Assembly: GCA_020048755.1 (NCBI GenBank)
Contig: JAIFMD010000029.1
Location: forward strand, 1 to 62,979
Direction: 5' to 3'
Length of the DNA stretch: 62,979 nucleotides
Origin: Spirochaetota bacterium
Lineage (GTDB): Bacteria > Spirochaetota > Spirochaetia > Treponematales > UBA12059
Shown: positions 3,238 through 51,122 of the stretch, piece after piece
Layout: the number at the start of each line of letters is the position of its first letter
Position numbering within the stretch: the first letter of the stretch is position 1
The notes under the pieces: model-generated
Seen by the model: only the letters and a program-made list of their open reading frames with translations
Database searches by the model: none
What the model was told of the DNA's origin: nothing
Made by a program: the position numbers and the translations under genes

Positions 3238-3900
3238 TCAGTAATCTGCGGGCTCTATACCCAGATATGCAAGGTAAGCCCGGGTAAGTTCCGTTATGAG
3301 CTGTCCGGTATCGCAGGCCTGGCCGGTGCGAAGAGGTTCCCACAACAGGAATTCGCGCATTGCAAAGAACATCTGCTGAAAGCCGAACAGGACAGCACGC
3401 CTGGGATGCTGGTGCCGAATCAAGTGCTCATGTACCAGCAGGAACTTCTCCAGTGCCGGGTAAAGCTCATCCCAGGCCCTGCGTTCACGTTCCTTGAAGC
3501 GATCATCCCCATGGATGCGGGCCTTCATGTTGAGGGATCTCAGGAGCCCGTGATCCCTGCCGTAAATATCAACCATAAAACCAATCGCATCCCTTGCGAT
3601 ATAGGCAATAGTCCCGTGTTCCCAGTCTTTCGATGCGATCCTCTCACTCAGCCGCTTCTTGAAACCTGCAAGAAAACGTTCGTCAAGCGCGTGGAGCAGG
3701 GCATCCTTGTCGGCAAAGCGCCCATAGAAGGCCCCAACGGATGTATCAGCCTTGATGACTATCTCGGCAATAGTCAGTTCCTCAAAGTTCTTGTATTCTA
3801 GTATCTCTGTAGCAGAGTCAAGAATCCGCGTCAGGGTTTCCCTGCTTCGATCCTGCTGAGGCTGCCTGAAAGATTCAGTAATCGCACTATTGTTGAACAT
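3238..3900 (-). CDS. TetR/AcrR-family transcriptional regulator
   Basis: N-terminal HTH signature 'RETLTRILDSATEILEYKNFEELTIAEIVIKADTSVGAFYGRFADKDALL'. The ~220-aa size is typical of the family. Confidence 0.85.
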   Translation of the reverse strand: MFNNSAITESFRQPQQDRSRETLTRILDSATEILEYKNFEELTIAEIVIKADTSVGAFYGRFADKDALLHALDERFLAGFKKRLSERIASKDWEHGTIAYIARDAIGFMVDIYGRDHGLLRSLNMKARIHGDDRFKERERRAWDELYPALEKFLLVHEHLIRHQHPRRAVLFGFQQMFFAMREFLLWEPLRTGQACDTGQLITELTRAYLAYLGIEPADY

Positions 3901-3973
3901 GTATCCACCCTGTGCTAAAATAGAATGTCTGTTCTATATTTATATTGTATGGTACCAGAGATACGCAATATCA

Positions 3974-11439: not shown

Positions 11440-11667
11440 CTGAATGCTCCTTGCCCTGACTGTGAGCGCCCCGTAATTGCGCAGCTTAAATTCGATTCCA
11501 TTAAATAGAATGTTGATTCTGATTTAGTATATACCGGATTACGGTCAATGCAAGTGCGTGTGAATACTGTTTTTTTGTATTTTCGTCAAGGAACAACCCA
11601 TCTGTAGTATCGGTAGATGCTGAACCTGTCGTATCATGGCAATACAGAATCAAGGAGGCTCCACGGC

Positions 11668-12700
11668 ATGTCTGATGACTCGAGCGACCCCGCCGGGCCG
11701 CACAAGCGCCGTCCCCGCTACAAGGGCACACACCCCCGCGCGTTCTCTGAAAAGTACAAGGAACTCGATCCCGAACGCTACACAGCCGATGTCGAAAAGG
11801 TGATCGCCCGGGGCGCGACCCCGGCTGGCAGCCACCGCAGCATCTGCGTCCGGGAAGTGCTCGACGTACTTGCCCCCAGACCGGGAGAACTGGCTGTAGA
11901 CGCCACCCTCGGACATGGCGGCCACGCTCTGGAGTTGCTCAAGGCCATCATGCCCGGTGGCACCCTCTACGGTCTGGACCGGGACCCGCTTGAAATTGCA
12001 AAGACAGAAGCGCGCCTCAGGGAAGCAGGCTTTGGTGAGCAGTCCTTTGTCGCTGTACGGATCAACTTTGCTGAGACCGGCAAGCTGTTTTCTGAAGACA
12101 GTCCGTTGGCAGCACCATTGGCCGGGGTAGACATGGTACTCGCCGACCTAGGCGTCTCGTCGATGCAGATAGACAATCCCGACCGGGGCTTTACCTTCAA
12201 GTTCGAGCGCCGCAGAGCTTATCCGCAGCCTCTCTGAATCAAAAATGCGTGAGCTCATCGACGAGTACTCAGACGAGCCTGAGGCGGCCATCATAGCCCG
12301 GGTCCTGACCCAGCGCCGCGGCACAATCGATACAACCAAGGCCCTGCGCGATGCCATCCGCTATGCGCTTGAAGGCCGCGTTGAGTCAGACGACGTCATC
12401 AAGAAGGCCATAAAGCGCACCTTCCAGGCCTTCCGCATAGCCGTGAACGGCGAACTGTCTGCCCTGGACGCCCTGCTCGCGGCGTTGCCAGATTGCCTGA
12501 ATCCTGGTGGCCGCGCTGCCATACTGTGCTTCCATTCAGGCGAGGAGGGGCGGGTAGCGCGCGCCTTCCAGACCGGGCTGGACAGCGGCGTGTACGCATC
12601 GATATCCCCAGAAGGCCTACGGGCCAGCGCCGAAGAGCGCTACCAGAATCCCCGCTCTACCTCGGCACGGCTGTGGTGGGCGATCAGGGCGGGAACGTGA
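11668..12700 (+). pseudogene. rsmH: RsmH/MraW-family SAM methyltransferase paralogue, split by an internal deletion with a frameshift
   Basis: Frame 1 (11668-12237) contains 'VDATLGHGGH...GLDRDP...ADLGVSSMQIDNPDRGFTF'. Frame 2 (open from 12173; ATG at 12245) contains 'SAAELI...EPEAAIIARVL...KRTFQAFRIAVNGEL...GGRAAILCFHSGEEGRV...NPRSTSARLW'. The conserved 'DGPLDMRMD' block expected between the two halves is absent. RBS 'aaggagg' at 11652-11658. Confidence 0.7.
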
Positions 12701-31181: not shown

Positions 31182-31214
31182 CCAAACCGCCATACCAGTA
31201 CTGGTATGGTTTGG
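31182..31214 (-). promoter_or_regulatory. 33-nt palindrome at the predicted 5' end of the nrdJ mRNA (operator or 5' stem-loop)
   Basis: Perfect 20-bp palindrome 'ccataccagtactggtatgg' (31190-31209), extended by ccaaa/tttgg with a 3-nt bulge. It lies 18 nt upstream of the nrdJ ATG. Confidence 0.6.
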
Positions 31215-31216
31215 TA

Positions 31217-31245
31217 ATTATATGTCGATATGCTGTACCTGTCTA
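31217..31245 (-). promoter_or_regulatory. Candidate sigma70 promoter of nrdJ
   Basis: On the minus strand: 'TAGACA' (31240-31245), a 17-nt spacer, then 'TATAAT' (31217-31222). Confidence 0.45.
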
Positions 31246-31300
31246 GTATCGCAAGAGCGGCTAACGGCAAGGCTCTACCGGGCCGATACTGATATTGAAT

Positions 31301-32824
31301 ATGGAAACACTTGTTGTCATCAACGCAACCCGCGTCAACGAATTTGCCGGCATGCCGCTGGCTGGCGGACAAAGCGCTCTGGACCGCGTTCTGGCTTTTG
31401 CCCGTAGCCTCACTGGTGGCTCACCGGACCTCCTGGTCCTGGCCTCGCAATCGGTACCCGAACTCGGGGTTGAGATGGTCAGAAAGCCCGCCTGGAGCAT
31501 GCATGATGTCCTCACCGAAGCCGCCACCTTTGCGGCGTCCCGCCCCGATGCAGACGCCGTTCTGTACCTGCATGCCGACGCGCCGTTCGTAGATGCCGAA
31601 CTGACGGCTACGCTCCTGGAGCTGCACCGGAGGTACCGCGCGGAGTACACCTTTGCAGACGGATACCCGCCCGGTTTCGCGCCTGAACTGCTTGCAATAA
31701 AATCGTTGCCCAACCTCATCGAACTTGCGGCTAAAAATGATGCGCCTGTAGAACGCGATGGCCTGTTCTCGGTCATACAGAAGGATATCAATTCGTACGA
31801 CATCGAGACTCACCTTTCTCCGGTAGACTTGCGTGCGTACCGTTTTTCGCCCGTATGCGATTCAAAGCGCAACTTCATCGCTGCCGAACGCCTGTGGAAT
31901 CTGGGAGCTCGTTCCGCTGAAGACGTGACGAAATTACTGCCCGTCCATCCGGAACTCCTGCGCACCCTGCCCGCGTTCATGTGGGTGCAGATTGCCGAGG
32001 CCTGTCCCCAGTCCTGTTCATACTGTCCGTATCCTCTCATGAAAGGCGACCCACGCAAACTGACCGGTTTCATGCCGACAGAACGCTTCGGGCGGCTCAT
32101 GCTGGACGCCGAAGTGCTGTGTGATGATCTGGTCGTCGATGTGTCGCTGTGGGGCGAGCCGTCGCTGCATCCGGATTTTTCCGGCATAGCCGAAGCGGTG
32201 CTGGCAAGGCCTCGTTTCACCCTGATAGTCGAGACGAGCGGCATAGGCTGGACCCAGGGACTGGCCGAATCATTGGCAGCAAAGGCAGGCCCGCGCATCC
32301 AGTGGATCGTTTCACTGGATGATGCGGACGACGAAGGCTATCTGGCAATCCGTGGCGAGGGCAAGGATGAGGCTACGGCATTTGCCGAACGGCTCCTGCG
32401 GGTATCGCCTGGCAACGTGCATGCCCAGGCCGTGCGCATGAAAGACAACGAACCCCGGCTTGAGGCGTTCTATCGTGGCTGGAAGAAGCGTGGAGACAAG
32501 GTAATAGTGCAGAAGTACGACTCCTTCGCGGGGTGCCTGCCGGACAGGACGGTTGCCGAACTCGTTCCTCTGGACCGTCTGCCGTGCAGGCACCTGGCCC
32601 GTGACCTTGCGGTCCTTGTCGATGGCAGCGTGCCACCCTGCAAACATTGCCTGGTATCGCGTGATGATGGCCGGCTCGGGTATGCGGAAATTTCCGGAAA
32701 CGCCTTCGACGATGGACTCGAATCGATATGGAACCGGACTGGCGCGTGGTATGACCGGCACCTGGCCTCGGATTATCCCCTCCCGTGTGGACGTTGCGAT
32801 GAATACCATACCTTTAACGCTTGA
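31301..32824 (+). CDS. Cytidylyltransferase-like domain fused to a radical SAM/SPASM domain ('spiro-SPASM'-type protein)
   Basis: The N-terminus 'LVVINATRVNEFAGMPLAGGQSALDRVL' is SpsF-like nucleotidyltransferase. Cx3Cx2C 'CPQSCSYC' at nt 32003-32026. C-terminal Cys cluster 'CRHLARDLAVLVDGSVPPCKHC...CGRCDEY'. Confidence 0.75.
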   Translation: METLVVINATRVNEFAGMPLAGGQSALDRVLAFARSLTGGSPDLLVLASQSVPELGVEMVRKPAWSMHDVLTEAATFAASRPDADAVLYLHADAPFVDAELTATLLELHRRYRAEYTFADGYPPGFAPELLAIKSLPNLIELAAKNDAPVERDGLFSVIQKDINSYDIETHLSPVDLRAYRFSPVCDSKRNFIAAERLWNLGARSAEDVTKLLPVHPELLRTLPAFMWVQIAEACPQSCSYCPYPLMKGDPRKLTGFMPTERFGRLMLDAEVLCDDLVVDVSLWGEPSLHPDFSGIAEAVLARPRFTLIVETSGIGWTQGLAESLAAKAGPRIQWIVSLDDADDEGYLAIRGEGKDEATAFAERLLRVSPGNVHAQAVRMKDNEPRLEAFYRGWKKRGDKVIVQKYDSFAGCLPDRTVAELVPLDRLPCRHLARDLAVLVDGSVPPCKHCLVSRDDGRLGYAEISGNAFDDGLESIWNRTGAWYDRHLASDYPLPCGRCDEYHTFNA

Positions 32825-33761
32825 CGCCTACCGCCCAACGTATACCGTACTTGGCGGCGTCCGGGGTAGTGGTTCCAGGGACAGGTTTCCTGTTTCGGTG
32901 CTGCTGCTCAACCGGGGCCCGCGACTCTATCGTGCGGCGATGATCCAGGAACTGGTCAAGGTCGGCTTCGATTCGATAGTCTCCATGGAGGGGATAAGCG
33001 ATTCACCCGAGCTCGAGGGGCTTGCCTCGAAACATCCGCAGGTGCGGTTCATCTGCATGCATGACGACTGCAATCTCGGCGCAAAGATGAACATAGGCAT
33101 GCGGGAGTCAACTGCCCCGTTCGTGTTCGTATTGTGGAATGACCTGCGCCTCGCGACGAGTACCCTGTCCAGCCGTTTTTTCGACAAGGTGCTTGACCTC
33201 GATGTTGCCTGCCTCGTGCCCACGCTCAGCGATGCTGCCGGATCACTTGTTCCATCCATCAGCAATCCGGCCCAGTCTGGCAAGGCCTTCAGGGTTGTAC
33301 CGCTGCCCCCCAGTGCCGATGGCGAGAAGAGCCTGTATCCATTCGATGCCTGCGGAATCTATTCCAGAGAAAAATTCACCATGCTTGGCGGATACGACTG
33401 GACCATCGACAATCCGTACTGGCAGAAGCTTGATTTTGGGATGCGTACCTGGCTTTGGGGAGAGAAAATACAATACGCCCAGGCACTCAGGCTCAAATAC
33501 GAGTCTAATCCACCTGCCGACGACACAACCCCCAATATCGATTATGGCCGGTTCTGGCTCAAGAACCTCGCTCCCATGTATCGCGGCGATGCGGCGACGC
33601 TTCCCCGGTCCCGCCTGTGGAGTTACATGCTTCGATCGCGCAGGAATCCTTCGGCCGCCCTCGATGAGTTCAAGGCAGCCCGGGAATGGGTGGATGCGTG
33701 TGCCTATCGATTCAAGGCAGACGCAACACGGCTTGCAGACCTATGGGATCCACTCTCGTGA
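32799..33761 (+). CDS. Glycosyltransferase family 2-like protein (degenerate motifs)
   Basis: 'VSVLLLNRGPRLYRAAMIQELVKVGFDSIV...NLGAKMNIGMRESTAPFVFVLWNDLRL' resembles a GT-A fold N-terminus. 26-nt overlap with the preceding gene. Confidence 0.45.
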   Translation: MNTIPLTLDAYRPTYTVLGGVRGSGSRDRFPVSVLLLNRGPRLYRAAMIQELVKVGFDSIVSMEGISDSPELEGLASKHPQVRFICMHDDCNLGAKMNIGMRESTAPFVFVLWNDLRLATSTLSSRFFDKVLDLDVACLVPTLSDAAGSLVPSISNPAQSGKAFRVVPLPPSADGEKSLYPFDACGIYSREKFTMLGGYDWTIDNPYWQKLDFGMRTWLWGEKIQYAQALRLKYESNPPADDTTPNIDYGRFWLKNLAPMYRGDAATLPRSRLWSYMLRSRRNPSAALDEFKAAREWVDACAYRFKADATRLADLWDPLS

Positions 33762-33769
33762 TACCTGCC

Positions 33770-34444
33770 ATGAAAACCGGTGTTGTCGTGCAGATGCGGC
33801 TGGATTCCAGGAGGTTGCCGGGCAAGGCCTTGCTTCCTCTGGGCGGTACAAACCTCGCCGGCATGGTGCTGCGCAGGTTGCGCGCCCTGGCCGTGGACGA
33901 GTATGTGCTGGCAACCGACCCTGACGGGGCCAAAGCATTCGCGGATGTAGCCAGTGAATCTGGCTTTTCTGTTTTTGCAGGACCAAAAGACGACGTGCTC
34001 GCACGCTACACAATGGCGGCCGAGGCTTTTGGGCTCACACGGCTCATCCGGGCAACCGGTGACAATCCCTTCGTGTCGGTAACCCTGGCAGTCCTGGCGA
34101 TGGATGCCGCGGATGAATCCGGCGCCGACTATGTGGGGCTAGTCGGGATGCCTGTGGGGATGGGGGTAGAAGTGGTCAGCGTTGCTGCCCTCTGCAAGGC
34201 AGCGGGAGCAGCAACGAGCACTTTCGACCGGGAGCACGTATGCCCGTATCTCTACACAAACCCTTCTGTTTTTTCCATCCTCAGACCCGAGTGCCCCATT
34301 GCATACCGGTTGCCCGGAGCCCGGATTACCGTGGATACGCCCGCTGATTTCAAACAGGCGGAGGCACTAGTGGCTGCTCTCGGCCCCCTGCCTTCTGACA
34401 ATGCGATACTTGCCTGGCTCAAGGGCCCGCAGAAAGGCACTTGA
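33770..34444 (+). CDS. SpsF-like cytidylyltransferase (CMP-sugar synthase family)
   Basis: 'VVVQMRLDSRRLPGKALLPLGG' matches the SpsF / acylneuraminate cytidylyltransferase N-terminal motif. GTG 33758 is an alternative start. Confidence 0.7.
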   Translation: MKTGVVVQMRLDSRRLPGKALLPLGGTNLAGMVLRRLRALAVDEYVLATDPDGAKAFADVASESGFSVFAGPKDDVLARYTMAAEAFGLTRLIRATGDNPFVSVTLAVLAMDAADESGADYVGLVGMPVGMGVEVVSVAALCKAAGAATSTFDREHVCPYLYTNPSVFSILRPECPIAYRLPGARITVDTPADFKQAEALVAALGPLPSDNAILAWLKGPQKGT

Positions 34445-34449
34445 ACACC

Positions 34450-36249
34450 ATGGTCAGCATACTGTTCGTTCCCTCCGTCCGCCGCGGCAATGGTTCCGGG
34501 CACCTCGTACGCTGTTTCGGGCTTGCCTCTGCATTGGGCACCAAGGCCGCGGTCTTCCTCTCCAATGATCCCGGTCCTGTTTCGTGGAGTTCTGATGAAC
34601 TCAGGCTTGCCTACCCACGGGAAATGAGTTCTGTGCGCATTATTGGCGAACTACGGTCAGAGGCCAGGTTCACGCTTGTCGTGCTCGACAACCGGGAAAC
34701 CCCGGCAGCCGAACTGGAGCACTGGGCCCGGTGGGGCACCGTCGTCGCCATTGACGAAGGGGGTGAGGCAAGGAGCTCCGCAGCATACCTTGTAGACATA
34801 CTGCCCCGGCCCTGGCGGCAGGCCCGGTTGGGATTACCGCCCAACCTCTCGTCTCTCGGGTATCTCGCCTTGCCTACGGCACGCAGGTTGCCTCCCGCTT
34901 CAATCAAGCGGGTCCTCGTCAGTTTTGGAGGAGAGGATCCCGCTGGACTGGCGGATGCCTTCCTCAAGGCAGCGGTAGGAAACGGTTTTGTTTCAGCCGA
35001 ACAGATAACCGTCGTTACAGGCGCGCTTTCCAGATCAGCGATCCGGTTTCCTGGCGTCACGGCCATAGGTCCGGTACAGGACCTCAAGGAGAAACTTCGC
35101 TCGTACGACCTGGTCGTTACCCAGTTTGGCCTCACTGCCTTCGAGGCAGCCTGGGCCGGTTGTGCCGTGCTCCTCCTCAATCCTTCTGCCATACATGAAG
35201 AACTCACCCGTGCCGCCGGTTTTATGAGTCTTGGAATAAGAAAACCTGAGCTCAAGGTAATCCGCAAGGTTTTTCAGGATCCTGCGGAACTTATACAGGC
35301 TTCCCTCGGGGCTGCGCCAGAACAGCGGCTGGATCTGGCTGCCCGGCTTGAGTTGCTCTCTCCGAAGCATGCGGGTGACTGTCCCGTGTGTGGTCTCCGC
35401 AACGGCCAGGCCATTTTTAGGTCGGAACGCAAGACCTACCACGTGTGCCCGGCCTGCGGCCTCGTCCGCATGGCCTATTTCGAGGCACGAGAGTATCCGT
35501 ACGCCGAACGCTCGTACTTTTTCGAAGAATACAAGGCGCAGTACGGCAGGACCTACATAGAAGATATTCCTTCGATCAGGGCGGCCGGAGCAAAACGTCT
35601 GGGTGTCATAGAGTCACTGCTCTCCAGGTCCTCACCACCTGGACACATGGGACAAAGCCTTCTGGATGTAGGCTGTGCGTATGGAGCCTTTGTCGCGGAA
35701 GCCCAGAGCCGCGGCTGGAACGCCGTTGGCTCCGATGTGGCTCCCGATGCCGTAGAGTATGTAAAAGCTACTTATGGCGTGCCGGCTTTCATAGCCGACT
35801 TCGCGGCACCCGGAGCGGATGGACTCTATCCCCGCAACCTGTCCTGCCTGTCCATGTGGTATGTCATAGAACACTTCGATGAACTGGCCCGTGTCCTCCG
35901 GCGTGTTGCTTCATTGATGCAGCCTGGTGGTGTTTTTGCGTTCTCCACGCCTTCGGGATCCGGAATATCGGCCCGCAGGAATCCGGCTGATTTTTACGAA
36001 CGATCACCGGATGATCACTTCACCATCTGGAGTCCGGCAACTGCTCCCGGGATTCTCAAACGGTTCGGTTTCGATGTACAACAGATAGTCGTGACGGGTC
36101 ACCATCCTGAGCGTTTTGCCGGCGTACCAGCAGATGCGAGGTCGCTGCGGTACAAGGTGGTCATGGCAATTTCCAGGCTCCTGGGGCTCGGCGACACCTT
36201 CGAGTGCTACGCCGTCTACCGCGGCCTGGCTGATGGCGGCGCTGCATGA
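34450..36249 (+). CDS. Fusion of a SpsG/PseG-like domain, a Zn-ribbon and a class I SAM methyltransferase
   Basis: N-terminus 'VRRGNGSGHLVRCFGLASAL...VLVSFGGEDPAGL' is PseG/SpsG-like. Zn-ribbon 'CPVCG...CPACG'. Methyltransferase motif I 'LLDVGCAYGAF'. TTG 34441 is an alternative start. Confidence 0.7.
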   Translation: MVSILFVPSVRRGNGSGHLVRCFGLASALGTKAAVFLSNDPGPVSWSSDELRLAYPREMSSVRIIGELRSEARFTLVVLDNRETPAAELEHWARWGTVVAIDEGGEARSSAAYLVDILPRPWRQARLGLPPNLSSLGYLALPTARRLPPASIKRVLVSFGGEDPAGLADAFLKAAVGNGFVSAEQITVVTGALSRSAIRFPGVTAIGPVQDLKEKLRSYDLVVTQFGLTAFEAAWAGCAVLLLNPSAIHEELTRAAGFMSLGIRKPELKVIRKVFQDPAELIQASLGAAPEQRLDLAARLELLSPKHAGDCPVCGLRNGQAIFRSERKTYHVCPACGLVRMAYFEAREYPYAERSYFFEEYKAQYGRTYIEDIPSIRAAGAKRLGVIESLLSRSSPPGHMGQSLLDVGCAYGAFVAEAQSRGWNAVGSDVAPDAVEYVKATYGVPAFIADFAAPGADGLYPRNLSCLSMWYVIEHFDELARVLRRVASLMQPGGVFAFSTPSGSGISARRNPADFYERSPDDHFTIWSPATAPGILKRFGFDVQQIVVTGHHPERFAGVPADARSLRYKVVMAISRLLGLGDTFECYAVYRGLADGGAA

Positions 36250-36265
36250 GGCCCGCGGAGCACAC

Positions 36266-37849
36266 ATGAAAGCACTACTGATACTGGGCGCCGGCGTCAT
36301 GCAGGGGCCAGCCATACGGATAGCCAAGGCCAAGGGGTACCGCGTGTACGCCGCCGACGGCAATCCAGCAGCCCCCGAAGCCCGGTCCGCCGACCATTTC
36401 CTTCATATTGACCTCAAGGACAAGGACGCGCTGGCCCAGGCCGCAGCGGCGATAGACGGCCTGGCGGGGGTTATGACCGCCGGCACCGATTTTTCTGCCT
36501 CTGTTGCCTGGGTAGCCGGGCAGCTCGGGTTGCCCGGCCTGCCGTACGAGGTCGCCCTCGACGCGTCTGACAAGGCCAGGATGCGGTCCAGGCTTGCCGC
36601 GGGTGGAGTTCCCGTGCCGGCCTACGCCTATGGCACAGCCGGGGACGACCCCACGGTGCTTGCAGGCCAGGTTGCTCCGTTGCCCCTGGTCGTAAAGCCG
36701 GTGGACAACATGGGTTCGCGCGGTTGTCGCCTTGCGCGTACCCTGCCAGAGTTGCGCGAGGCCTGGGCCGATGCTGTCAGACATTCCCGGTCAGGCACTG
36801 CCATCATCGAAGCCTACCTGCAAGGGCCGGAATTCAGTCTTGACGCCATCGTGCACGAGGGGCGCGTCGTATTGCGCGGGATAGCGGACCGCGTTGTCGT
36901 TTTTGAACCATTTTTCGTCGAGATGGGGCATACCATACCCAGTTCTTATGGTAAGGACATCCTTGACGAGGTCGTGGCGGTGTTCGAGGCAGGCATCAAG
37001 GCCCTCGGCATCAGGAACGGGGCGGCCAAGGGTGATATAAAATATACCCGGGGCGGTGCCTTCGTCGGAGAAATAGCCGCAAGGCTCTCTGGCGGATACA
37101 TGTCCGGCTGGACCTACCCGTATTCCAGCGGGGTAGAGGCGACCGCGGAGGCCATAGATCTGGCCTGCGGCGTCATACCCGATTTTCCGGGGCACGCCCA
37201 TGACCTTGTGTGTTCAGAGCGGGCCTGGATTTCCATACCGGGCAAGGTTGCCACTATTTTCGGCCTCGAAGAAGCAACCCACATGGGCAGCGTCCGCGAT
37301 ATTTTTTCACGTGCGGCTCCGGGTGACCGTGTTGTCTTTCCATGCAACAACGTTGAAAAATGCGGCAACATTCTCGCTGTCGCGCCTACCTCCATCGAGG
37401 CGGATGCCGCGGCAGAAAAAGCGGCCAGGTCAGTATTGCTCAGGCTCGAGCCAGAAAATTCTGAAACAGCAGCTTTTTTGCGTGGCGACGGGCACATGAC
37501 GGGCCCTGACGGTTCAATCTGGCCACCCGAGGCGTATGATGGCCTGTCCGCCATGACCCTCGCGTCACTGGACAAGATGCCCGACATGATCCGCCTGTCG
37601 CCGACCGTTGGTTCGTGTTCCATAGCACCGCTGCACGGTGCGGAGCTGGAAACAGGTGTAGACTGGCAGGGAAGATCGATCGCCGAGTCCCTGGAGGCCG
37701 TTTCCCTGTTGACCGGGGCTTCGGTAGGCCTGCACGGGGACCTGGTCTTCGGTGCTTCCTTCTGGCGTGCCTTGTTCAAAGGCGGCTATCAAGCCGGATC
37801 CTGGCTGATAGACTCTGCCCGTACTCGTCTGGTAGCCCCGCTTCGATGA
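36266..37849 (+). CDS. ATP-grasp domain protein with a ~200-aa C-terminal extension
   Basis: 'KALLILGAGVMQGPAIRIAKAKGYRVYAAD', 'LPLVVKPVDNMGSRGCRL' and 'AIIEAYLQGPEFSLD' fit the ATP-grasp layout. Confidence 0.7.
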   Translation: MKALLILGAGVMQGPAIRIAKAKGYRVYAADGNPAAPEARSADHFLHIDLKDKDALAQAAAAIDGLAGVMTAGTDFSASVAWVAGQLGLPGLPYEVALDASDKARMRSRLAAGGVPVPAYAYGTAGDDPTVLAGQVAPLPLVVKPVDNMGSRGCRLARTLPELREAWADAVRHSRSGTAIIEAYLQGPEFSLDAIVHEGRVVLRGIADRVVVFEPFFVEMGHTIPSSYGKDILDEVVAVFEAGIKALGIRNGAAKGDIKYTRGGAFVGEIAARLSGGYMSGWTYPYSSGVEATAEAIDLACGVIPDFPGHAHDLVCSERAWISIPGKVATIFGLEEATHMGSVRDIFSRAAPGDRVVFPCNNVEKCGNILAVAPTSIEADAAAEKAARSVLLRLEPENSETAAFLRGDGHMTGPDGSIWPPEAYDGLSAMTLASLDKMPDMIRLSPTVGSCSIAPLHGAELETGVDWQGRSIAESLEAVSLLTGASVGLHGDLVFGASFWRALFKGGYQAGSWLIDSARTRLVAPLR

Positions 37850-38898
37850 CCAGACGCCTCCGCCTGTCCGCCATTCTGCTTCTCGCAAGCTTCAGCGTCG
37901 TTTTCCCGCAGGGAACACCGGCTGGCTGGACCGATGTGATGGCCGTGGCGTCAGTATGGAAGGCAACGGTTGCGTACGACGCCCTGACCGGTACGGGACA
38001 TTTCCTGCGCGGAGCTGACCTCGTTCGCTTCAAGCGCGACTATCCGGTGTATTCTGTCGGCTCGGGTCTGTCCTTGCGGGCACCCGCGGTACGTGACACC
38101 GGTGCGCGGCTCGAGATGTCGTCAGAGGCGGTCGCCGCCATCACCCGCTGGTTTACTGAACGGGATGCCGAACGTGCTTCTAGGTTCAGCATTGCTGCCA
38201 TTCTCATAGACCCTGGCCATGGAGGCAAGGATTCGGGAGCCATAGGTGAGTTCGGCACCGGAAAGGACCGCCTGAGGATACTGGAGAAGGATGTCGTGCT
38301 CGCTGTCGGGGCGGATGTCTATGCCAGGCTCCAGGCGCGATGGCCAGATAAAAGAATACTGATGACCAGGACCGGAGACACCTTCCCGACGCTCGATGCC
38401 AGGGTAGACAAGGCCAACGAAGTCCCACTCGAAGCCAATGAGGCAATCATCTACGTTTCCATCCACGCAAACGCTTCCTTCAACAAGGCCGCATCGGGGT
38501 TTGAGGTCTGGTACCTGAATCCGGAGTATCGGCGCACGGTGGTGGATTCAAAAAAAGCCGAAGGTGTCGACAAGAACGTGCTGCCCATCCTCAATGCCAT
38601 GCTCGAGGAAGAATACACGACCGAGAGTGTGTTTCTGGCCAGGAGCATCCTGGGCAGCATGAAAAAAAACATCGGAGCTGTTTCAATCGACCGCGGTATC
38701 AGGGAAGAAGAGTGGTTCGTAGTACGGAATGCCAAGATGCCCAGTGTGCTCGTCGAAGTTGGTTTCGTAACAAACGAGGCTGAAGCCAGATTGCTTTCCG
38801 ACCGGGAACACTTGCGCAAGCTCGGTGACGGCATCTATAATGGCGTAGTCGATTTTGTAGACTATTTTGAACACAGGAAGGGTCCCACCGCACCGTGA
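37846..38898 (+). CDS. N-acetylmuramoyl-L-alanine amidase (Amidase_3, AmiC-like)
   Basis: 'ILIDPGHGGKDSGAIG', 'YVSIHANA', 'GFEVWYL' and 'VLVEVGFVTNEAEA'. Signal 'LSAILLLASFSVVFPQG'. ATGA overlap with the upstream gene. Confidence 0.85.
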   Translation: MTRRLRLSAILLLASFSVVFPQGTPAGWTDVMAVASVWKATVAYDALTGTGHFLRGADLVRFKRDYPVYSVGSGLSLRAPAVRDTGARLEMSSEAVAAITRWFTERDAERASRFSIAAILIDPGHGGKDSGAIGEFGTGKDRLRILEKDVVLAVGADVYARLQARWPDKRILMTRTGDTFPTLDARVDKANEVPLEANEAIIYVSIHANASFNKAASGFEVWYLNPEYRRTVVDSKKAEGVDKNVLPILNAMLEEEYTTESVFLARSILGSMKKNIGAVSIDRGIREEEWFVVRNAKMPSVLVEVGFVTNEAEARLLSDREHLRKLGDGIYNGVVDFVDYFEHRKGPTAP

Positions 38899-39449
38899 AG
38901 CGTAGCCTCAAGCAGACAGTTGCAGCATTTGCAGGCTTCATCAATAACAACCTCAAGCCGGAAACCATCTGGCCAGGCTTGTTACTGATTGTTTTTATGG
39001 CAAGTGCACTTGCTTCCCTGGCTTTGCCAGACCGTCGCGCCATCGTGCTCTGGTTTCCAGATTCACGTATGATTTCACCTTCCAGTGCAAAGTCCGAACT
39101 CAGGTATGTCGGTTCGAACCGGGATGTTGCGGTCCTGGCTGCTTCTGTTGTTGAAGAGTTGCTGCTTGGCCCGCTCTCTCCGGGTTTGCGGTCCCTGACC
39201 GTTTCCGATGCCAGGCTCCAGTCTTCCATACGCTCCGGGAAAACACTATACGTTGATGTATCAAATGATATACTCTTTGGCAGGTTGTCGGCTTCTGGCG
39301 TATATGATGCGCCTGCAGTGCAACCTGAGGTCGTGCTTGCTTATATAGAGCGTTGCCTGCAATGGAATTTCCCTTTTTTCAGGATTGTACTCACCGTAGA
39401 CGGCCAGGAACCAGTCTGGACGCAATCAGAGGTAGCCGAAGGGATATAA
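38895..39449 (+). CDS. GerMN-like domain protein, commonly paired with amidases
   Basis: N-terminal TM segment 'IWPGLLLIVFMASALASLAL'. 'LLLGPLSPGLRSLTVSDARLQSSIRSGKTLYVDVSNDILFG' resembles a GerMN domain. 4-nt overlap with the amidase gene. Confidence 0.45.
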   Translation: MKRSLKQTVAAFAGFINNNLKPETIWPGLLLIVFMASALASLALPDRRAIVLWFPDSRMISPSSAKSELRYVGSNRDVAVLAASVVEELLLGPLSPGLRSLTVSDARLQSSIRSGKTLYVDVSNDILFGRLSASGVYDAPAVQPEVVLAYIERCLQWNFPFFRIVLTVDGQEPVWTQSEVAEGI

Positions 39450-39463
39450 ATCAAATAAAATAA

Positions 39464-39491
39464 TTGACAAAGGCATAGGCTTGGCTATAAT
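39464..39491 (+). promoter_or_regulatory. Consensus sigma70 promoter upstream of flaA
   Basis: 'TTGACA' (39464-39469), a 16-nt spacer, then 'TATAAT' (39486-39491). Both hexamers match the consensus perfectly. Confidence 0.6.
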
Positions 39492-40618: not shown

Positions 40619-40662
40619 CGTAATAGCTTGCCCGTCATGCCTTTACATCGTATTCTTTGCCC

Positions 40663-41907
40663 ATGGATATAACTGAACCCATACCGAGCAGGGCTACGCT
40701 TGAAAAAGCATACAAGTCCAACCAGAAAGTCCTTGAGGGTATCCTTGGAGAGATGGTTTCAAGAATTCAGGGTGCTCTTGATAGTGCGGGCCTGTTCCCT
40801 GCTTACAAGCACCGGATCAAGTCGTTCCAGAGTTATTTTTCCAAGAAAATAAAATTCATACGGGAATCATCGACAAATGGAACAACGTGCCTTCCCATAA
40901 CAGACCTCATAGCCCTGAGGATAATCTGTCCTTTCATTGGTGACCTCGACAGAGTTGAGAAGGCCCTCTCATCACATTTCATTGTACGTGAAGTAGAGCG
41001 CAAGGGTGCTGAGCGGTCATTCAAGGAATTTGGCTATGAATCAACCCATATGCTGCTGGAGGTTCCACCCGATCTGCTCAATGGCTCTACGTTCCTGGAT
41101 CCTCCGGTATGTGAGGTACAGATACGGACCATACTCCAGGATGCCTGGGCCGAGGTCGAGCATGAACTGGTGTACAAGGCAGAGTTTACTCCCTTTGATG
41201 ATCCGATGAAACGAAAACTGGCAGCCTTGAACGCCAACCTTACACTCTCGGACATGCTCTTCCAGGAAATACGGGATTATCAGCATCAGTTGACCAATGA
41301 ACTTGCCAAGAGGCGGGTAGCCTTTTTCAAGAAAATAGAAGACGCCATAGACAAGGATCTGTATACCAATTTCAAGGAGACCCCACGTTCCGGTGGAGAA
41401 GAGCCGAAACAGCCTTCCTGGCTCGGACCCTGGAAATCCCTCGATGATCTGCTCCTTGAAGCACTCAATGCGCACAACCGTGCGGATTATATCAGGGCTA
41501 TAGATATCTATTCACATCTGCTTGCCATGGATCCAAAGCCAGATATACGGGCCTTGATCTACAAACACCGCGGCATGGCTTTTTTCGCGGAAAGCCGCTA
41601 TGACGAGTCCATGGAAGATTTTTCAGCGACCATGGAGATTGATCCAGCATGCTACAAGGCTGCGTACTATCGGGGAGTAGTGCATAGCGTCAAACAGAAC
41701 TACTCTGCGGCGATAGATGACTTCAACAGCGCACTGGCTATCCATCCTTACCATTTCTATTCAACGTATCGTCGTGCCCAGGCGCACTACCATTTTGAGG
41801 ACTATCCCAAAGCCCTTGCTGATTGTGATGCCGCTCTTGAACTTGAACCTGATAACGATTCGCTAAAAAAACTGAGGGGCATGGTTCTTAAAAAGCTCAA
41901 AATGTAA
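40663..41907 (+). CDS. Small alarmone synthetase (RelA/SpoT synthetase domain) fused to C-terminal TPR repeats
   Basis: 'ITDLIALRIICPF', 'FGYESTHMLLEV' and 'CEVQIRTILQDAWAEVEHELVYK' form the RelA_SpoT nucleotidyltransferase domain. The C-terminal ~150 aa are TPR ('YKHRGMAFFAESRYDESMEDFSATMEIDPACYKAAYYRG...'). Confidence 0.8.
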   Translation: MDITEPIPSRATLEKAYKSNQKVLEGILGEMVSRIQGALDSAGLFPAYKHRIKSFQSYFSKKIKFIRESSTNGTTCLPITDLIALRIICPFIGDLDRVEKALSSHFIVREVERKGAERSFKEFGYESTHMLLEVPPDLLNGSTFLDPPVCEVQIRTILQDAWAEVEHELVYKAEFTPFDDPMKRKLAALNANLTLSDMLFQEIRDYQHQLTNELAKRRVAFFKKIEDAIDKDLYTNFKETPRSGGEEPKQPSWLGPWKSLDDLLLEALNAHNRADYIRAIDIYSHLLAMDPKPDIRALIYKHRGMAFFAESRYDESMEDFSATMEIDPACYKAAYYRGVVHSVKQNYSAAIDDFNSALAIHPYHFYSTYRRAQAHYHFEDYPKALADCDAALELEPDNDSLKKLRGMVLKKLKM

Positions 41908-49583: not shown

Positions 49584-51122
49584 TCATGGTTTCTGCAGTG
49601 CGTCGGCGAGTCGCCCGCGCCAGTAGGCGGCTTCAGCGGCTACGCGCCTGAGGGCGTCGTCTTCCAGTTCCAGTACCCGTTCCGGATCTGGAAAATGGAA
49701 GTACAGGAAGTCTGCGTCGGCCAGCAGCGCTTTCAACCGTTCCGGGGTTGTTCCGGTGCGCAGCGCAGCCGCCACGTTTTCCGCGCGTTCGAGTTCCACC
49801 GCCAGAAAGTTACGGGCAAGCTCCCTGCAATGCTCAGGGTCCATATGCGAACCCAGTTGCCCTGCTTCACCCCGCACGTATTTTCCTTCAGCCAACAGTT
49901 CCATGTCTCTGGGTGTTGTTGCACGCAATGGTAGACCCGCACCGAAACCACCCCTCAGGTCCCATGCATCCAGACCTCTCAATTCGCCAGCCGCCAGCGC
50001 CGCGTACATGGCCAGTGCCGGATCTGTCAGCGAGCCGTCTTGCCTGCGCGTGCAGCCATCCCGGAAGGAGCTCGCCCACGCCGCACTCCGCTTCTCGGTG
50101 CGGCTCTCCGTACGTCGTGCCCGCAGGTCGGCCGGGCTGCCGGAACAATGTGTCCTGCCCTGGTTGAAGGCAAAATCAAGCCCCGCAACGAGAACCGGGC
50201 CGCCGAGGAGCCTGGCTATCCTGATGGCCAGTACACCGACAGATCCCAGTGGTGGAACAAGCGTGAGAGGCAACCCCGAGGCCGCAAGGCGCTTCAGGAA
50301 TGCGCTGTCTGTGTATTCACTCAGGGTCAGGCTCAAAGAGCCTGGCAAGGCCCTGAACGAGGCGGGGTGGGCAGTCAGATCCGCTACCAGCGCTGCGGGC
50401 CTGCCTTCAAGGGGCAGGAAATCTTCAACATTGTAGACTTGCCCCTCCAGGCAGACGACGGCATCAGGAATGATGCCAGCCCTTGCCAGAGCGCCCGAGG
50501 CAGTGTCGCAGGCCAGCACGAACAGGCCTTCACGGTGCCGGTCCAGCACTGGCAGGGCGCCATCAAGCGAGGGCCCCGCGCCACAGACGACTATCGGCTT
50601 GCCACCCGCACCGATCGGCACGAGTGCCTCCCAGCGCATCGAACCCAGGTTTGCGATTATGTTCTTAGTCCACAGACGGCCCATCCTGACCAGCGCCAGC
50701 CGGTTGCGGAACCGTATCTGTATGTCGGCATCGATGGCAGCCAGTACACGGTCATACTCGGCCTCGTGCAGTGCCCTCCCGCCAGAGACCCGAACCTCGA
50801 TGGCACGCCTGAAACGGGCGGGTGCGATGCGTTGCTCCACGGAGCGGTATGCAGCGATGGCTTCGTGTGGTGAGGCCAGGACGACGCCAGGTAAACCTTC
50901 CGCGATAGACTTCTCGGCAATTGAGCGCAACGTGGCCTCGGCCTCGATGCAGAGAATTGCACTGGAAGCCGGCAACCGTTCCAGCAGTTCCCGGAGTCCA
51001 TAGCAGAGGCAGGGTGAGGGTACTATGTACAGAGTGTCTGGTCTGAAAGGAGTGGCCAGGACTGCGGCCAGAATTGAAAAGCCCCTGCCCGTATCGACGA
51101 GCAGGGGCCTTGCATCATCCAT
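49584..51122 (-). CDS. DUF115 / MptE-like protein (motility-associated factor Maf-like)
   Basis: 'PIVVCGAGPSLDGALPVL...FVLACDTASGALARAGIIPDAVVCLEG' is the DUF115 core seen in Maf flagellin-glycosyltransferase candidates. Confidence 0.6.
   Translation of the reverse strand: MDDARPLLVDTGRGFSILAAVLATPFRPDTLYIVPSPCLCYGLRELLERLPASSAILCIEAEATLRSIAEKSIAEGLPGVVLASPHEAIAAYRSVEQRIAPARFRRAIEVRVSGGRALHEAEYDRVLAAIDADIQIRFRNRLALVRMGRLWTKNIIANLGSMRWEALVPIGAGGKPIVVCGAGPSLDGALPVLDRHREGLFVLACDTASGALARAGIIPDAVVCLEGQVYNVEDFLPLEGRPAALVADLTAHPASFRALPGSLSLTLSEYTDSAFLKRLAASGLPLTLVPPLGSVGVLAIRIARLLGGPVLVAGLDFAFNQGRTHCSGSPADLRARRTESRTEKRSAAWASSFRDGCTRRQDGSLTDPALAMYAALAAGELRGLDAWDLRGGFGAGLPLRATTPRDMELLAEGKYVRGEAGQLGSHMDPEHCRELARNFLAVELERAENVAAALRTGTTPERLKALLADADFLYFHFPDPERVLELEDDALRRVAAEAAYWRGRLADALQKP

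Follow-up and report, generated by a model that had tools for sequence, protein, structure and literature searches.

What is the function of a run of tightly packed spirochaete genes in which sugar-nucleotide enzymes and a radical-SAM protein stand in line with a cell-wall amidase, immediately 5' of the flagellar gene flaA? The genes, labelled g1 to g7 here (Table 1), lie on a 62,979-nucleotide stretch of a Spirochaetota genome (host uncultured and Treponemataceae-like, GC ~58%), the whole of which we analysed and call the window. A reading made from the sequence alone had described the block as uncharacterised. This agrees with our searches, which returned no published function: 'spiro-SPASM' is absent from the literature searched, and all 450 homologues of g2 are named 'hypothetical'. 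The six junction values of that reading (-26, +8, +5 or -4, +16, -4 and -4 nt, from g1 to g7) were reproduced exactly from the ORF coordinates, and its domain calls all hold against Pfam and NCBIfam profiles and folds, the AmiC subtype of the amidase aside.

Table 1. Coordinates of the block and associated features in the window
Feature	Position	Strand	Description
g1	31301-32824	+	spiro-SPASM protein, 507 aa
g2	32799-33761	+	GT-A-fold protein, 320 aa, family without a name
g3	33770-34444	+	SpsF-type cytidylyltransferase, 224 aa
g4	34450 (or TTG start at 34441)-36249	+	PseG/SpsG-like + Zn ribbon + methyltransferase fusion
g5	36266-37849	+	L-amino-acid-ligase-type ATP-grasp enzyme, 527 aa
g6	37846-38898	+	exported Amidase_3 N-acetylmuramoyl-L-alanine amidase, 350 aa
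g7	38895-39449	+	GerMN-like protein, membrane-anchored, 184 aa
nrdJ/g1 divergent intergenic region	31186-31300		probable block promoter region
flaA sigma-70 promoter, TTGACA-16-TATAAT	39464-39491	+	12/12 consensus matches
flaA	39523-40563	+	PF04620, E 1.1e-71; flagellar filament outer-layer protein
Maf-like (MptE-like/DUF115) protein	49584-51122	-	PF01973, E 2.5e-24; outside block

The block is not a random juxtaposition. We compared 80 loci, each of a different spirochaete genome, in which g1 identity runs from 86 to 40%: order and strand (g1-g2-g3-g4-g5-amidase-(GerMN)-flaA) are the same in every locus that is long enough, the lone exception to gene order being a 5.6-kb insert in L076. The seven-gene adjacency is kept in most free-living Spirochaetales and Treponematales. 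The 3' end of g1 and the start of g2 share a 26-nt stretch that codes in two frames, and this overlap is preserved in 72 of 79 loci; median junctions across the loci are -26, -4, -10, +1 and -9 nt. The tight junctions and conserved order bear out the operon-like character proposed from the window. Separate promoters splitting the block were also looked for, and promoter scoring across related loci found no conserved sigma-70-like sites at internal junctions, where best scores are mostly 6-8, compared with 8-10 of 12 upstream of g1 in 81 of 83 loci. Upstream lies nrdJ (class II ribonucleotide reductase), divergent from g1 on the minus strand, with a minus-strand promoter-like site at 31245-31217. 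The block's promoter probably lies between the two genes, and the seven genes are probably co-transcribed from a promoter 5' of g1.

That flaA follows the block is correct in so far as it adjoins directly, but it has its own consensus promoter and so is not within the block's transcription unit. Across 52 related loci this promoter matches the consensus at 12/12 positions in 37 and at 11/12 in 15, and judged from these matches flaA is an independent, strongly promoted transcription unit. The window's copy is missing 57 nt relative to four related loci (L001, L002, L006 and L008), and with them its start codon and signal-peptide codons. In L085, cheA lies 3' of flaA, which is the Borrelia gene order.

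Looking across the loci, the block consists of two modules, A (g1-g4) and B (g5-g7). Sugar toolkit and amidase are linked by a conserved adjacency in long loci, but this link is not obligatory, because module A occurs without g5, amidase or flaA in four lineages: T. pallidum, T. phagedenis, Treponema sp. OMZ 788 (a T. denticola relative) and L083. In the three named treponemes, g3 and g4 of the stand-alone module are fused. Module A of T. pallidum comprises TPANIC_0284 (spiro-SPASM, 559 aa), 0286 (hypothetical, 318 aa) and 0288 (with a methyltransferase domain, 857 aa), with BLASTP identities to g1, g2, g3 and g4 of 31, 34, 37 and 30%. All three protein products (TP0284, TP0286 and TP0288) have been detected by proteomics, and amidase-TP0248-flaA form a separate locus. 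Neighbours of the module differ elsewhere: a CDP-alcohol phosphatidyltransferase gene lies 5' in T. phagedenis, FGGY kinase and Fe-ADH genes lie 3' in L081, and YceG lies 3' in L083. The g4/g5 and g5/g6 junctions are tight in more than 50 loci, which would equally fit one single pathway.

The earlier assignment of g3 and g4 as SpsF/SpsG(PseG)-type enzymes is upheld by intact catalytic motifs. The g3 protein matches CTP_transf_3 (PF02348, E 1.2e-24) and the Leptospira borgpetersenii cytidylyltransferase 6OEW (E 6.9e-23), and retains the nucleotide motif R-x-x-S-x-R-L-P-G-K; in NCBIfam it does not match PseF and matches KdsB only below threshold. The N-terminal third of g4 is a PseG/SpsG-like GT-B domain with motifs GxGH21xxR, DEGG and FGGED. 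Next come a Cys4 Zn ribbon (~314-343) and, at ~389-548, a class I SAM methyltransferase (Methyltransf_23) that resembles TcaB9 and UbiG. G18, G20, H21, R24, D105, E106, G163, G164 and E165 are invariant, and in the alignment with C. jejuni PseG (3HBM), which has a profile E-value of only 0.035, H21 falls on His17. The same domain matches the GT28 enzyme 9WDE at 1e-3, and there is a weak PseG C-terminal match; the PseG family model gives 26 bits (cutoff 153.55). Both resemblances, that of the g4 N-domain with PseG and that of g3 with PseF/KdsB, are remote. Fusion of g3 to g4 is found in at least six lineages (L081, L082, L083, L086, L087 and T. pallidum TP0288). In B. subtilis, legionaminic-acid synthesis uses SpsF as its cytidylyltransferase and also requires the SpsG step (PMC7439481).

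The spiro-SPASM protein combines NTP_transf_3, Radical_SAM and SPASM domains in Pfam and scores 489.7 bits against NCBIfam TIGR04321 (cutoff 250). In its AF2 model (pLDDT 94.6), residues ~1-200 form a degenerate SpsF-like nucleotidyltransferase domain that is structurally like 6OEW (TMt 0.70) and in which, on comparison with the 6OEW/SpsF-type motif, the basic CTP-binding motif was not found. The core carries the triad C235-x3-C239-x2-C242 and resembles SuiB, SkfB, BtrN (TMt 0.73), anSME and BlsE; the C-terminal twitch/SPASM domain has four cysteines (C429, C447, C496 and C499). The sequence-only reading had counted the radical-SAM enzyme as part of the toolkit, but its radical chemistry cannot be central: the CX3CX2C triad is absent in 67 of 145 representatives of the family (46%), and the radical-SAM cysteines are absent from g1 of T. 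pallidum and the T. denticola group. Because these cysteines have been lost repeatedly within the family, we consider the radical chemistry accessory, and the one spirochaete glycan whose structure is known is uninformative on the radical step, since g1 of the T. denticola group and T. pallidum has no such cysteines. For g2 there is no Pfam or NCBIfam match. AF2 models it, at pLDDT 87.9, as a GT-A fold, with polypeptide GalNAc-transferases as top Foldseek matches (E 4.5e-12, TMq about 0.6); W113-N-D115 is conserved and a DxD motif was not found.

We favour the reading, at a probability of roughly 0.45, that module A provides three steps towards the flagellin nonulosonic-acid glycan: the PseG-like one, CMP activation and methylation. 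The FlaB glycan of T. denticola is a Pse-type nonulosonic acid with a 2-methoxy-4,5,6-trihydroxy-hexanoyl group (PMC13439194), and its methoxy group calls for a methyltransferase. T. pallidum encodes PseB-like TP0077, DegT TP0078, NeuB-family TP0562 and three DUF115/Maf proteins; none of its listed entries carries a pseudaminic-acid enzyme annotation, and the cytidylyltransferases named among them are limited to LicC-type and CdsA. TP0288 is thus a candidate for both missing steps. The suggested nonulosonic-acid link is the best available reading, but we found no evidence for the target proposed with it, the flagellar sheath (FlaA) or peptidoglycan; FlaB, the glycosylated filament core, is the likely target.

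We propose module A as a cytoplasmic, spirochaete-specific enzyme set that finishes and tailors the flagellin sugar, and infer substrates, target and step order as follows. The PseG-like domain of g4 would release a 6-deoxy-hexosamine from UDP, condensation would fall to a NeuB-family synthase whose gene lies elsewhere, the SpsF-type g3 would then make the CMP-activated sugar, and the Zn-ribbon methyltransferase of g4 would add a methyl group. The SpsF-like domain of g1, catalytically dead in this scheme, may present the nucleotide-sugar to the BtrN-like radical-SAM core for a further, optional reaction, whether oxidation, deoxygenation or epimerisation, that many lineages have abandoned. The g2 protein would be a GT-A-fold transferase of unspecified acceptor, produced in step with g1 through the 26-nt overlap; it has no obvious job, because the known FlaB glycan is a monosaccharide. 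The sugar would be pseudaminic-acid-type and O-linked to FlaB. As had been noted, canonical genes are absent from the window (NeuB, PseB and PseC were found nowhere in it). The Maf/DUF115 call is confirmed (Table 1), and this protein, which weakly matches PseD (E 1e-4), is a candidate flagellin nonulosonic-acid transferase.

Alternatively, module A may be unconnected with flagellin and make another glycoconjugate or small molecule, for example the head group of a glycolipid, a glycan on some other protein or a modified nucleotide; its place beside amidase and flaA would then be inherited order of no functional significance. We regard this as unlikely, though it is the strongest competitor. Arguing for it, module A adjoins none of NeuB, PseB, PseC or Maf in seven Pfam-annotated neighbourhoods and the window, g3 and the g4 N-domain miss the PseF and PseG family thresholds, neighbours change where module B is absent (T. 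phagedenis, L081 and L083), and the flaA promoter is independent. Counter to this, SpsF and SpsG pairing or fusion is a hallmark of nonulosonic-acid pathways, the catalytic His motif of PseG does not vary, and T. pallidum, which has a 1.1-Mb genome and to our knowledge no LPS, has retained module A and expresses it, while its Pse-like pathway, among the entries listed, lacks exactly these steps.

Module B bears on a further alternative. The g5 protein (ATP-grasp_4 + LAL_C2 in Pfam) has structural-profile matches to 4DIM (3e-17) and 3VOT (1.5e-16), residues invariant along its full length (K144, E182, E189, D257, E269, R273, W467 and W500) and a conserved C-terminal extension of ~130 aa whose fold was not recognised. 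The g6 protein has a signal-peptide-like N-terminus and is an Amidase_3 enzyme (PF01520, E 2e-45), as had been called; its AmiC subtype falls away (76.7 bits against 700), and it is also under the NCBIfam cutoffs for CwlD, AmiA and AmiB. The Germane match of g7 is marginal (23.8 bits, cutoff 23); at its position L084-L087 have an ORF of 158-178 aa, with Germane matches in L084 and L087. We suggest that module B is a cell-division unit of ATP-grasp amide ligase, exported peptidoglycan amidase and GerMN partner. If instead all seven genes formed one pathway, they would place a nucleotide-activated, methylated, amino-acid-ligated sugar on peptidoglycan or an envelope polymer at the division site, with amidase and GerMN acting on, or depending on, the modification; this is the earlier envelope/peptidoglycan option, and we judge it improbable. 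In its favour, spacing at the g4/g5, g5/g6 and g6/g7 junctions is no looser than within module A, the full order persists in every complete locus to 40% identity with no conserved sigma-70-like site dividing it, the block stays whole in L087, where g1 is without its cysteines, and the g4 N-domain is also like GT28 (MurG/UgtP-type) transferases. Against it, the modules are unlinked in the four lineages above, and T. pallidum keeps and expresses module A with no ATP-grasp protein annotated among the entries listed and with its GerMN counterpart, TP0248, a pseudogene with eight internal stops. We know of no comparable sugar modification in the peptidoglycan of spirochaetes.

Lastly, there is very little chance that g1 is a peptide-modifying (RiPP-type) radical-SAM maturase with unrelated neighbours: its best structural matches include SuiB, SkfB and CteB-type sactisynthases and it weakly matches PqqE and ScmF in NCBIfam, but the block holds no conserved small precursor-peptide gene, the N-terminal domain has a nucleotidyltransferase fold and not that of a RiPP recognition element, conservation of C-terminal cysteines is limited to four, which is the pattern of the one-cluster enzyme BtrN, protein and partners persist where the triad is lost, and translation of g1 and g2 is coupled in 72 of 79 loci.

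The g3-g4 fusion mirrors the clustering of neuA/flmD (PseF/PseG) in H. pylori; in strain 26695 the two are fused. The amidase-GerMN-flaA part of the block has the same layout as T. pallidum TP0247-0249, and the position of g6 relative to flaA is that of TP0247 and, as it appears, of Borrelia BB_0666 'Ami'. Borrelia bb0665-0667 looks similar to this part; PMC11863449, citing Yang & Li 2009, states that this amidase-containing operon promotes cell division, and BB_0666 is listed as Ami, a member of the divisome.

Conservation of gene order sets the block apart from a chance juxtaposition, in agreement with what the sequence-only reading had proposed. A profile search of genome contigs for the spiro-SPASM family, to which the first gene product (g1) belongs, gave at least 584 genome records with relatives, from which the 80 best-matching loci were retrieved (L numbers denote such related spirochaete loci). 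These best 80 matches all show at least 40% identity, with g1 ranging from 86% down to 40% identity to the window protein, and are drawn from Treponemataceae, Rectinemataceae, Spirochaetaceae, Sediminispirochaeta and Marispirochaeta. With the window proteins as tblastn queries, the order g1-g2-g3-g4-g5-amidase-(g7)-flaA was recovered on one strand in every sufficiently long locus of the best 80, the sole exception being L076, where an unrelated 5.6-kb segment on the opposite strand lies between g1 and g2. We rejected this insert as a source of pathway genes, its content being unrelated (a racemase, an adenylate cyclase, a symporter and a binding protein). Brucepastera parasyntrophica, a cultured species, also has the full block, as do three further genomes; the window itself comes from an uncultured, Treponemataceae-like spirochaete of roughly 58% GC. 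A representative search and a profile of AT-rich members returned, among the matches listed, only metagenomic or Treponema proteins, and none from Borrelia, Leptospira, Brachyspira or Sphaerochaeta.

The genes are tightly packed. Our re-derived junctions (-26, +8, +5 or -4 with a TTG start, +16, -4 and -4 nt) are identical to those reported from the sequence alone, and the junction medians over the loci are -26, -4, -10, +1 and -9 nt. The overlap of g1 and g2 is kept in 72 of 79 loci. Within it, the window g1 C-terminus CDEYHTFNA (then stop) and the g2 N-terminus MNTIPLT share bases; across loci, g1 CDEY(H/Y)T(F/Y)N is invariant and g2 M-N-T-I-P-x-T near-invariant. This retention argues for translational coupling of g1 and g2, whose proteins probably form a complex. 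All seven genes share one strand and either overlap or lie very close together, and neither a conserved internal sigma-70-like site nor a strong terminator was detected. By these junction and promoter criteria g1-g7 would form a single operon, with one transcript predicted. Terminator-like sites within the block are weak (5-7 bp stems, only modestly above shuffled-sequence level), and sigma-70-like scores rise somewhat 5' of g1 and stay at background ahead of g2-g6. An internal promoter ahead of g5 is reported for Borrelia; a conserved one at that place found no support in our sigma-70 scan. Separate promoters splitting the sugar genes from the amidase, which would have counted against the sequence-only reading, are likewise not seen, as the scan of the loci shows no conserved sigma-70-like site before g5 or g6.

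Features of the block and of the surrounding window, with assignments and scores (against model cutoffs where two values are given)
Feature	Coordinates (strand)	Assignment
Second radical SAM/SPASM gene	1034-2362 (+)	442 aa; Radical_SAM 1.9e-20, SPASM 1.3e-08
753-aa ORF	3890-6151 (+)	No Pfam match; weak partial anti-phage ProA match only, E 1.7e-09, 35.7 bits vs cutoff 1500
MraW/RsmH, split	11617-12237 and 12245-12700 (+)	Profile positions 3-117 and 148-306
Ribonucleotide reductase gene		Class II; 5' of block, divergent
Block g1-g7	31301-39449 (+)	
g1		NTP_transf_3-like + Radical_SAM + SPASM (PF13186, 24.5 bits vs 21.5); NCBIfam TIGR04321 'spiro-SPASM protein' over full length, 489.7 bits (cutoff 250), residues 4-507 on model positions 2-510
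g1/g2 overlap	32799-32824	26 nt, two reading frames
g2		No family match
g3		CTP_transf_3 (PF02348), E 1.2e-24, 87.8 bits vs 22.6
g4		PseG-like region (weak), then Zn ribbon, then Methyltransf_23
g5		ATP-grasp_4 (48.4 vs 27) + LAL_C2 (49.8 vs 29.4)
g6		Amidase_3 (PF01520), E 2e-45, 155.4 bits vs 27
g7		Germane/GerMN (PF10646), marginal, 23.8 bits vs 23
flaA promoter	39464-39491	TTGACA-16-TATAAT
Site of 57 nt missing from flaA	39523-39540	
flaA		FlaA, E 1e-71; 3' of block
RelA/SpoT-TPR gene	40657-41907 (+)	Small RelA/SpoT-domain protein fused to TPR repeats; 3' of flaA
Maf/DUF115 gene	49584-51122	MptE-like/DUF115 (Maf-type)

The sequence-only reading had also placed the block upstream of flaA. 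The position is conserved, but a shared transcript is not indicated: the promoter in the g7-flaA gap matches the consensus at 12/12 positions in the window and precedes a highly conserved 5' UTR, and among 52 related loci it scores 12/12 in 37 and 11/12 in 15, an unusually strict conservation across families. With its own consensus promoter, flaA is predicted to be a separate transcription unit, so that its place next to the block is a conserved address. Beyond flaA, the RelA/SpoT-TPR gene follows in the Treponematales-like half of the loci (L084, L086, L087), with cheA instead in L085; flaA-cheA is what we take to be the Borrelia gene order, flaA there being presumably bb0668. The window's four nearest relatives (L001, L002, L006 and L008; compare L001:18125-18335) have 57 nt that are missing here, and in them this stretch supplies the start codon and signal-peptide codons of flaA (MRRPLALIVAALLIANAS...). 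What is left of the ORF opens at an ATG that falls in the ribosome-binding site of these relatives, and its product begins with the mature N-terminus (…VVFADEAVLIDF). The gap is either a natural deletion, in which case FlaA would be stranded in the cytoplasm, or a fault of the assembly. Elsewhere in the window, the split of MraW/RsmH reflects a frameshift, a pseudogene or a sequencing error.

The block is divisible. In Treponema sp. OMZ 788 (T. denticola group), T. phagedenis and the AT-rich locus L083, g1 and g2 are followed by one 857-872-aa protein, which is g3 fused to the entire g4, and then by unrelated genes. The T. pallidum proteome supplements list, consecutively and all detected by MS, TPANIC_0284 (spiro-SPASM, 559 aa), TPANIC_0286 (hypothetical, 318 aa) and, next in the row, TPANIC_0288 ('methyltransferase domain-containing', 857 aa) (PMC10600179). 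Resequencing had merged TP0284-0289 into these genes (PMC3265458). By BLASTP the T. pallidum proteins share 31, 34, 37 and 30% identity with g1, g2, g3 and g4, respectively. The T. pallidum amidase TP0247, a decayed TP0248 (8 internal stops) and FlaA TP0249 are located elsewhere, and nothing is annotated as ATP-grasp in the part of the T. pallidum tables available to us. Since g1-g4 occur alone in these genomes, we call them module A, with g5-g7 forming module B, and the link between sugar toolkit and amidase, as first drawn, is not obligatory. Where module B is missing, genes of sugar-acid type adjoin module A: in the T. denticola group (L081:15106-17792) the tail of the g3-g4 gene overlaps an FGGY kinase gene, with an Fe-ADH next, and in T. 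pallidum (TP0290-TP0295) a Cof-type HAD phosphatase, an alpha-hydroxy-acid-oxidising protein and an FGGY kinase lie nearby (PMC10600179, supplementary file 2). These neighbours could relate to the 2-methoxy-trihydroxy-hexanoyl side chain of the flagellin glycan.

Within module A, g3 is closest to the Leptospira borgpetersenii SpsF-type cytidylyltransferase 6OEW (E 7e-23). Its basic CTP-binding motif is present (R-x-x-S-x-R-L-P-G-K), with MRLDSRRLPGK aligned to ARMGSTRLPGK of 6OEW. It reaches no equivalog; only KdsB-type models respond (17-35 bits against cutoffs of 155-281), with no PseF model among the matches. The PseG-like N-terminal third of g4 (g4N) scores 26.1 bits against a cutoff of 153.55 for the PseG model TIGR03590, over its C-terminal half only, and a profile of 30 orthologues finds weak GT28/PseG matches alone in the PDB (9WDE, 1e-3; C. 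jejuni PseG 3HBM, 0.035). The g4N motifs GxGH21xxR, DEGG and FGGED are invariant in the 30 orthologues, G18-x-G20-H21-x-x-R24 in 30/30, and H21 aligns with GFGH17 of 3HBM; His17 is what we take to be the catalytic base of C. jejuni PseG. The C-terminal part of g4, with Zn ribbon and methyltransferase, resembles TcaB9 and UbiG in PDB matches. Fusion of g3 and g4 is found in at least six lineages and is direct evidence, at the level of gene structure, that the two would act together.

We suggest, at a rough probability of 45% and on the basis of remote homology, motifs, fusion logic and gene inventory, that module A supplies the PseG-like, CMP-activating and methylating steps of a flagellin nonulosonic-acid glycan. 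The T. denticola FlaB glycan combines a nonulosonic acid of pseudaminic acid (Pse) configuration with a 2-methoxy-4,5,6-trihydroxy-hexanoyl group (PMC13439194), in line with the earlier statement that treponemal flagellins carry an unusual glycan, and its attachment is essential for filament assembly and motility (PMC13439194, PMC9481697). In B. subtilis, SpsF is a cytidylyltransferase and SpsG a required step of legionaminic-acid synthesis (PMC7439481), and a cited title describes H. pylori neuA/flmD (PseF/PseG) as clustered and needed for flagellin glycosylation. The accessible part of the T. pallidum tables contains the PseB-like TP0077, the DegT-family TP0078, the NeuB-family TP0562 and three DUF115/Maf proteins; in that part no pseudaminic-acid enzyme is annotated, and the only cytidylyltransferases named are of LicC type or CdsA. 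This Pse-like set shows no recognisable CMP-activating or PseG step, which by elimination makes TP0288 (g3 plus g4) a candidate for UDP-sugar hydrolysis, CMP activation and methylation; g1 and g2 would assist as lineage-specific partners, in tailoring or in transfer. Of the enzymes that act with PseF and PseG (PseB, PseC, PseH and PseI), no Polysacc_synt_2, NeuB or sugar-type DegT was seen in the 63-kb window or in seven annotated neighbourhoods, and Pfam searches of the remaining window, which found no NeuB, PseB or sugar aminotransferase, agree with the sequence-only reading that the canonical genes are absent. A module A product unrelated to flagellin is rather unlikely. On its side stand the independent promoter of flaA and the sub-threshold PseF and PseG scores of g3 and g4N; on the other stand the SpsF/SpsG-type pairing and fusion and the invariant His motif of g4N. 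The earlier Maf/DUF115 assignment was confirmed.

A second alternative, that all seven genes constitute one envelope or peptidoglycan pathway, would accord with the predicted single transcript, and is distinctly unlikely given that module A stands alone elsewhere. The simplest view of module B is a unit for division and peptidoglycan hydrolysis with an ATP-grasp partner. The g5 protein, an ATP-grasp enzyme of the L-amino-acid-ligase type (PDB match 3VOT, 1.5e-16), is conserved end to end, and this holds also for its C-terminal extension, some 130 aa long and of unknown fold. L-Orn(Gly) stem peptides suggested a role as the Gly-to-L-Orn peptidoglycan ligase, which we set aside: the T. pallidum tables, as far as available, show no ATP-grasp protein, although T. 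pallidum is presumed to have the same L-Orn(Gly) peptidoglycan type, and Borrelia is presumed to have a FemA-like gene. Alternatively, g5 could acylate a sugar amine, tying modules A and B. For g6, the label 'AmiC-type' is not supported (NF038267, 76.7 bits against 700; the CwlD, AmiA and AmiB models are also under their cutoffs). Positional orthologues of g7 match the GerMN model in L084 (weakly) and L087, and not in L085 or L086.

The spiro-SPASM protein g1 bears on how module A may work. The window protein has the CX3CX2C triad of radical-SAM enzymes (C235, C239, C242) and may be active. The family comprises 481 clusters (50% identity) at E <= 1e-30, and in an alignment of window g1 with 144 representatives the triad is intact in 78 of 145 and lost in 67, among them the proteins of T. 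pallidum, T. phagedenis, OMZ 788, L083 and L087. A neighbour-joining tree starts from a Cys-containing ancestor and needs at least about 16 independent changes to account for these losses. Nearly all 145 keep N164, D176, R181, R379, P423 and E501, and the C-terminal Cys 429, 447, 496 and 499 are kept in about 143; this set of four suits a single, twitch-like cluster better than the SPASM pattern of seven Cys. L087 lacks the triad yet retains the whole seven-gene block. Given this repeated loss beside an intact block, the radical reaction does not seem to be what holds the family and its neighbours together. Judged from the alignment, radical-SAM chemistry is dispensable in the family, which looks like a case of repeated conversion to a pseudo-radical-SAM protein. 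In the AF2 model (pLDDT 94.6) the N-domain superposes on 6OEW (TMt 0.70) and lacks the basic CTP motif, and we infer a ligand-binding pseudo-enzyme domain. Core and tail resemble SuiB, SkfB, BtrN (TMt 0.73), anSME and BlsE, with BtrN also the best PDB sequence match (4.4e-05). The separate radical SAM/SPASM gene near the start of the window matches no NCBIfam equivalog (best AhbD/NirJ-like, far under cutoff) and is flanked by family-less ORFs and a TetR regulator.

For g2, we found no match to the window protein in Pfam, NCBIfam or PDB profile searches; weak GT2 and NTP_transf_3 matches appear in 4-5 of 30 orthologues. Its AF2 model (pLDDT 87.9) has a GT-A Rossmann-like fold, nearest in Foldseek to GT27 polypeptide GalNAc-transferases (E 4.5e-12, probability 1.00, TMq 0.55-0.63), in line with the GT-A-like label given earlier, and no named family applies. 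The DxD metal-binding motif is absent, and W113-N-D115, with a single Asp, is conserved at the expected site.

These features allow a more elaborate scheme, in which module A makes a sugar acid other than ordinary Pse. The dead cytidylyltransferase domain of g1 would present a CMP-sugar to the radical-SAM core; methylation would follow, g5 would ligate the product to an amino or hydroxy acid, and g2 would install it on the flagellar filament or septal peptidoglycan, with deployment coupled to the co-transcribed amidase. We regard this scheme as very unlikely. If true, it would be a new way of performing radical chemistry on a nucleotide-sugar, with a spirochaete-wide target. That g1 is a RiPP maturase, despite its structural likeness to SuiB and SkfB, is hardly credible and was rejected.

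All domains of the block fall into known superfamilies, and a database already names the g1 family. For the architecture we found no characterised counterpart: a radical-SAM core fused to a pseudo-cytidylyltransferase stands beside a GT-A protein of no family and a fusion of SpsF, PseG-like and methyltransferase parts. Module A offers candidates, open to test, for steps still missing from the pathway of a glycan on which treponemal motility depends. If it does supply them, TP0284, TP0286 and TP0288, which are spirochaete-specific and expressed, would be motility-blocking targets in the agents of syphilis, yaws and periodontitis, and the origin of the methoxy-acyl decoration would be explained. 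In evolutionary terms, a radical-SAM site decays repeatedly to a pseudo-enzyme inside an operon-like block whose partners and order stay frozen. The conserved flaA consensus promoter is a ready strong promoter for spirochaete genetics.

Among known systems, module B recalls Borrelia bb0665-bb0666(ami)-bb0667 and T. pallidum TP0247-TP0248-TP0249, in which an Amidase_3 gene and a small gene precede flaA; the Borrelia likeness is by description only, as is the co-transcription there of the amidase with the gene upstream of it. BB_0666 is listed as Ami, a divisome member, and the operon is credited with promoting cell division (Yang & Li 2009, as cited in PMC11863449). T. pallidum differs in its decayed GerMN gene and, in the part of the tables available, in having no annotated ATP-grasp protein.

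With BtrN, BlsE and anSME, g1 shares a radical-SAM partial barrel and a C-terminal Cys-rich auxiliary-cluster domain, but only g1 has a nucleotidyltransferase-fold N-domain. Unlike twitch/SPASM enzymes, about half of its family lacks the SAM-cluster Cys while retaining the four C-terminal Cys. Another TIGR04321 member, TPANIC_0284 (TP0284-0285), has its partner genes (TP0286, TP0288) in the same order; the window protein has the radical-SAM Cys, whereas the proteins of T. pallidum, T. phagedenis and the T. denticola group do not. A literature search for 'spiro-SPASM' gave no mention, and for the named model TIGR04321 we found no function or pathway.

The closest parallels to g3 and g4 are PseF with PseG (C. 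jejuni; H. pylori neuA/flmD) and SpsF with SpsG (B. subtilis), which share with them the pairing, in some lineages of module A a fusion, of a CTP_transf_3 enzyme with a PseG/SpsG-type GT-B protein. Points of likeness to the Pse and legionaminic pathways are the alignment of g4N GxGHxxR with PseG His17, the flagellar context (adjacent flaA and a Maf-like gene in the window), the NeuB-family synthases of T. pallidum and T. denticola and the Pse-type sugar of treponemal flagellins. Against these, g3 and g4N fall far under the PseF and PseG model cutoffs, and PseB, PseC, PseH and PseI are not nearby. The Cys4 Zn ribbon directly before Methyltransf_23 in g4 recalls TcaB9-type NDP-sugar methyltransferases, but the TcaB9 match is weak (E ~7e-4), with UbiG-type O-methyltransferases scoring equal or better. 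What module A adds to the canonical pathways is a Zn-ribbon methyltransferase on a PseG-like domain, a family-less GT-A protein and a pseudo-cytidylyltransferase/radical-SAM fusion.
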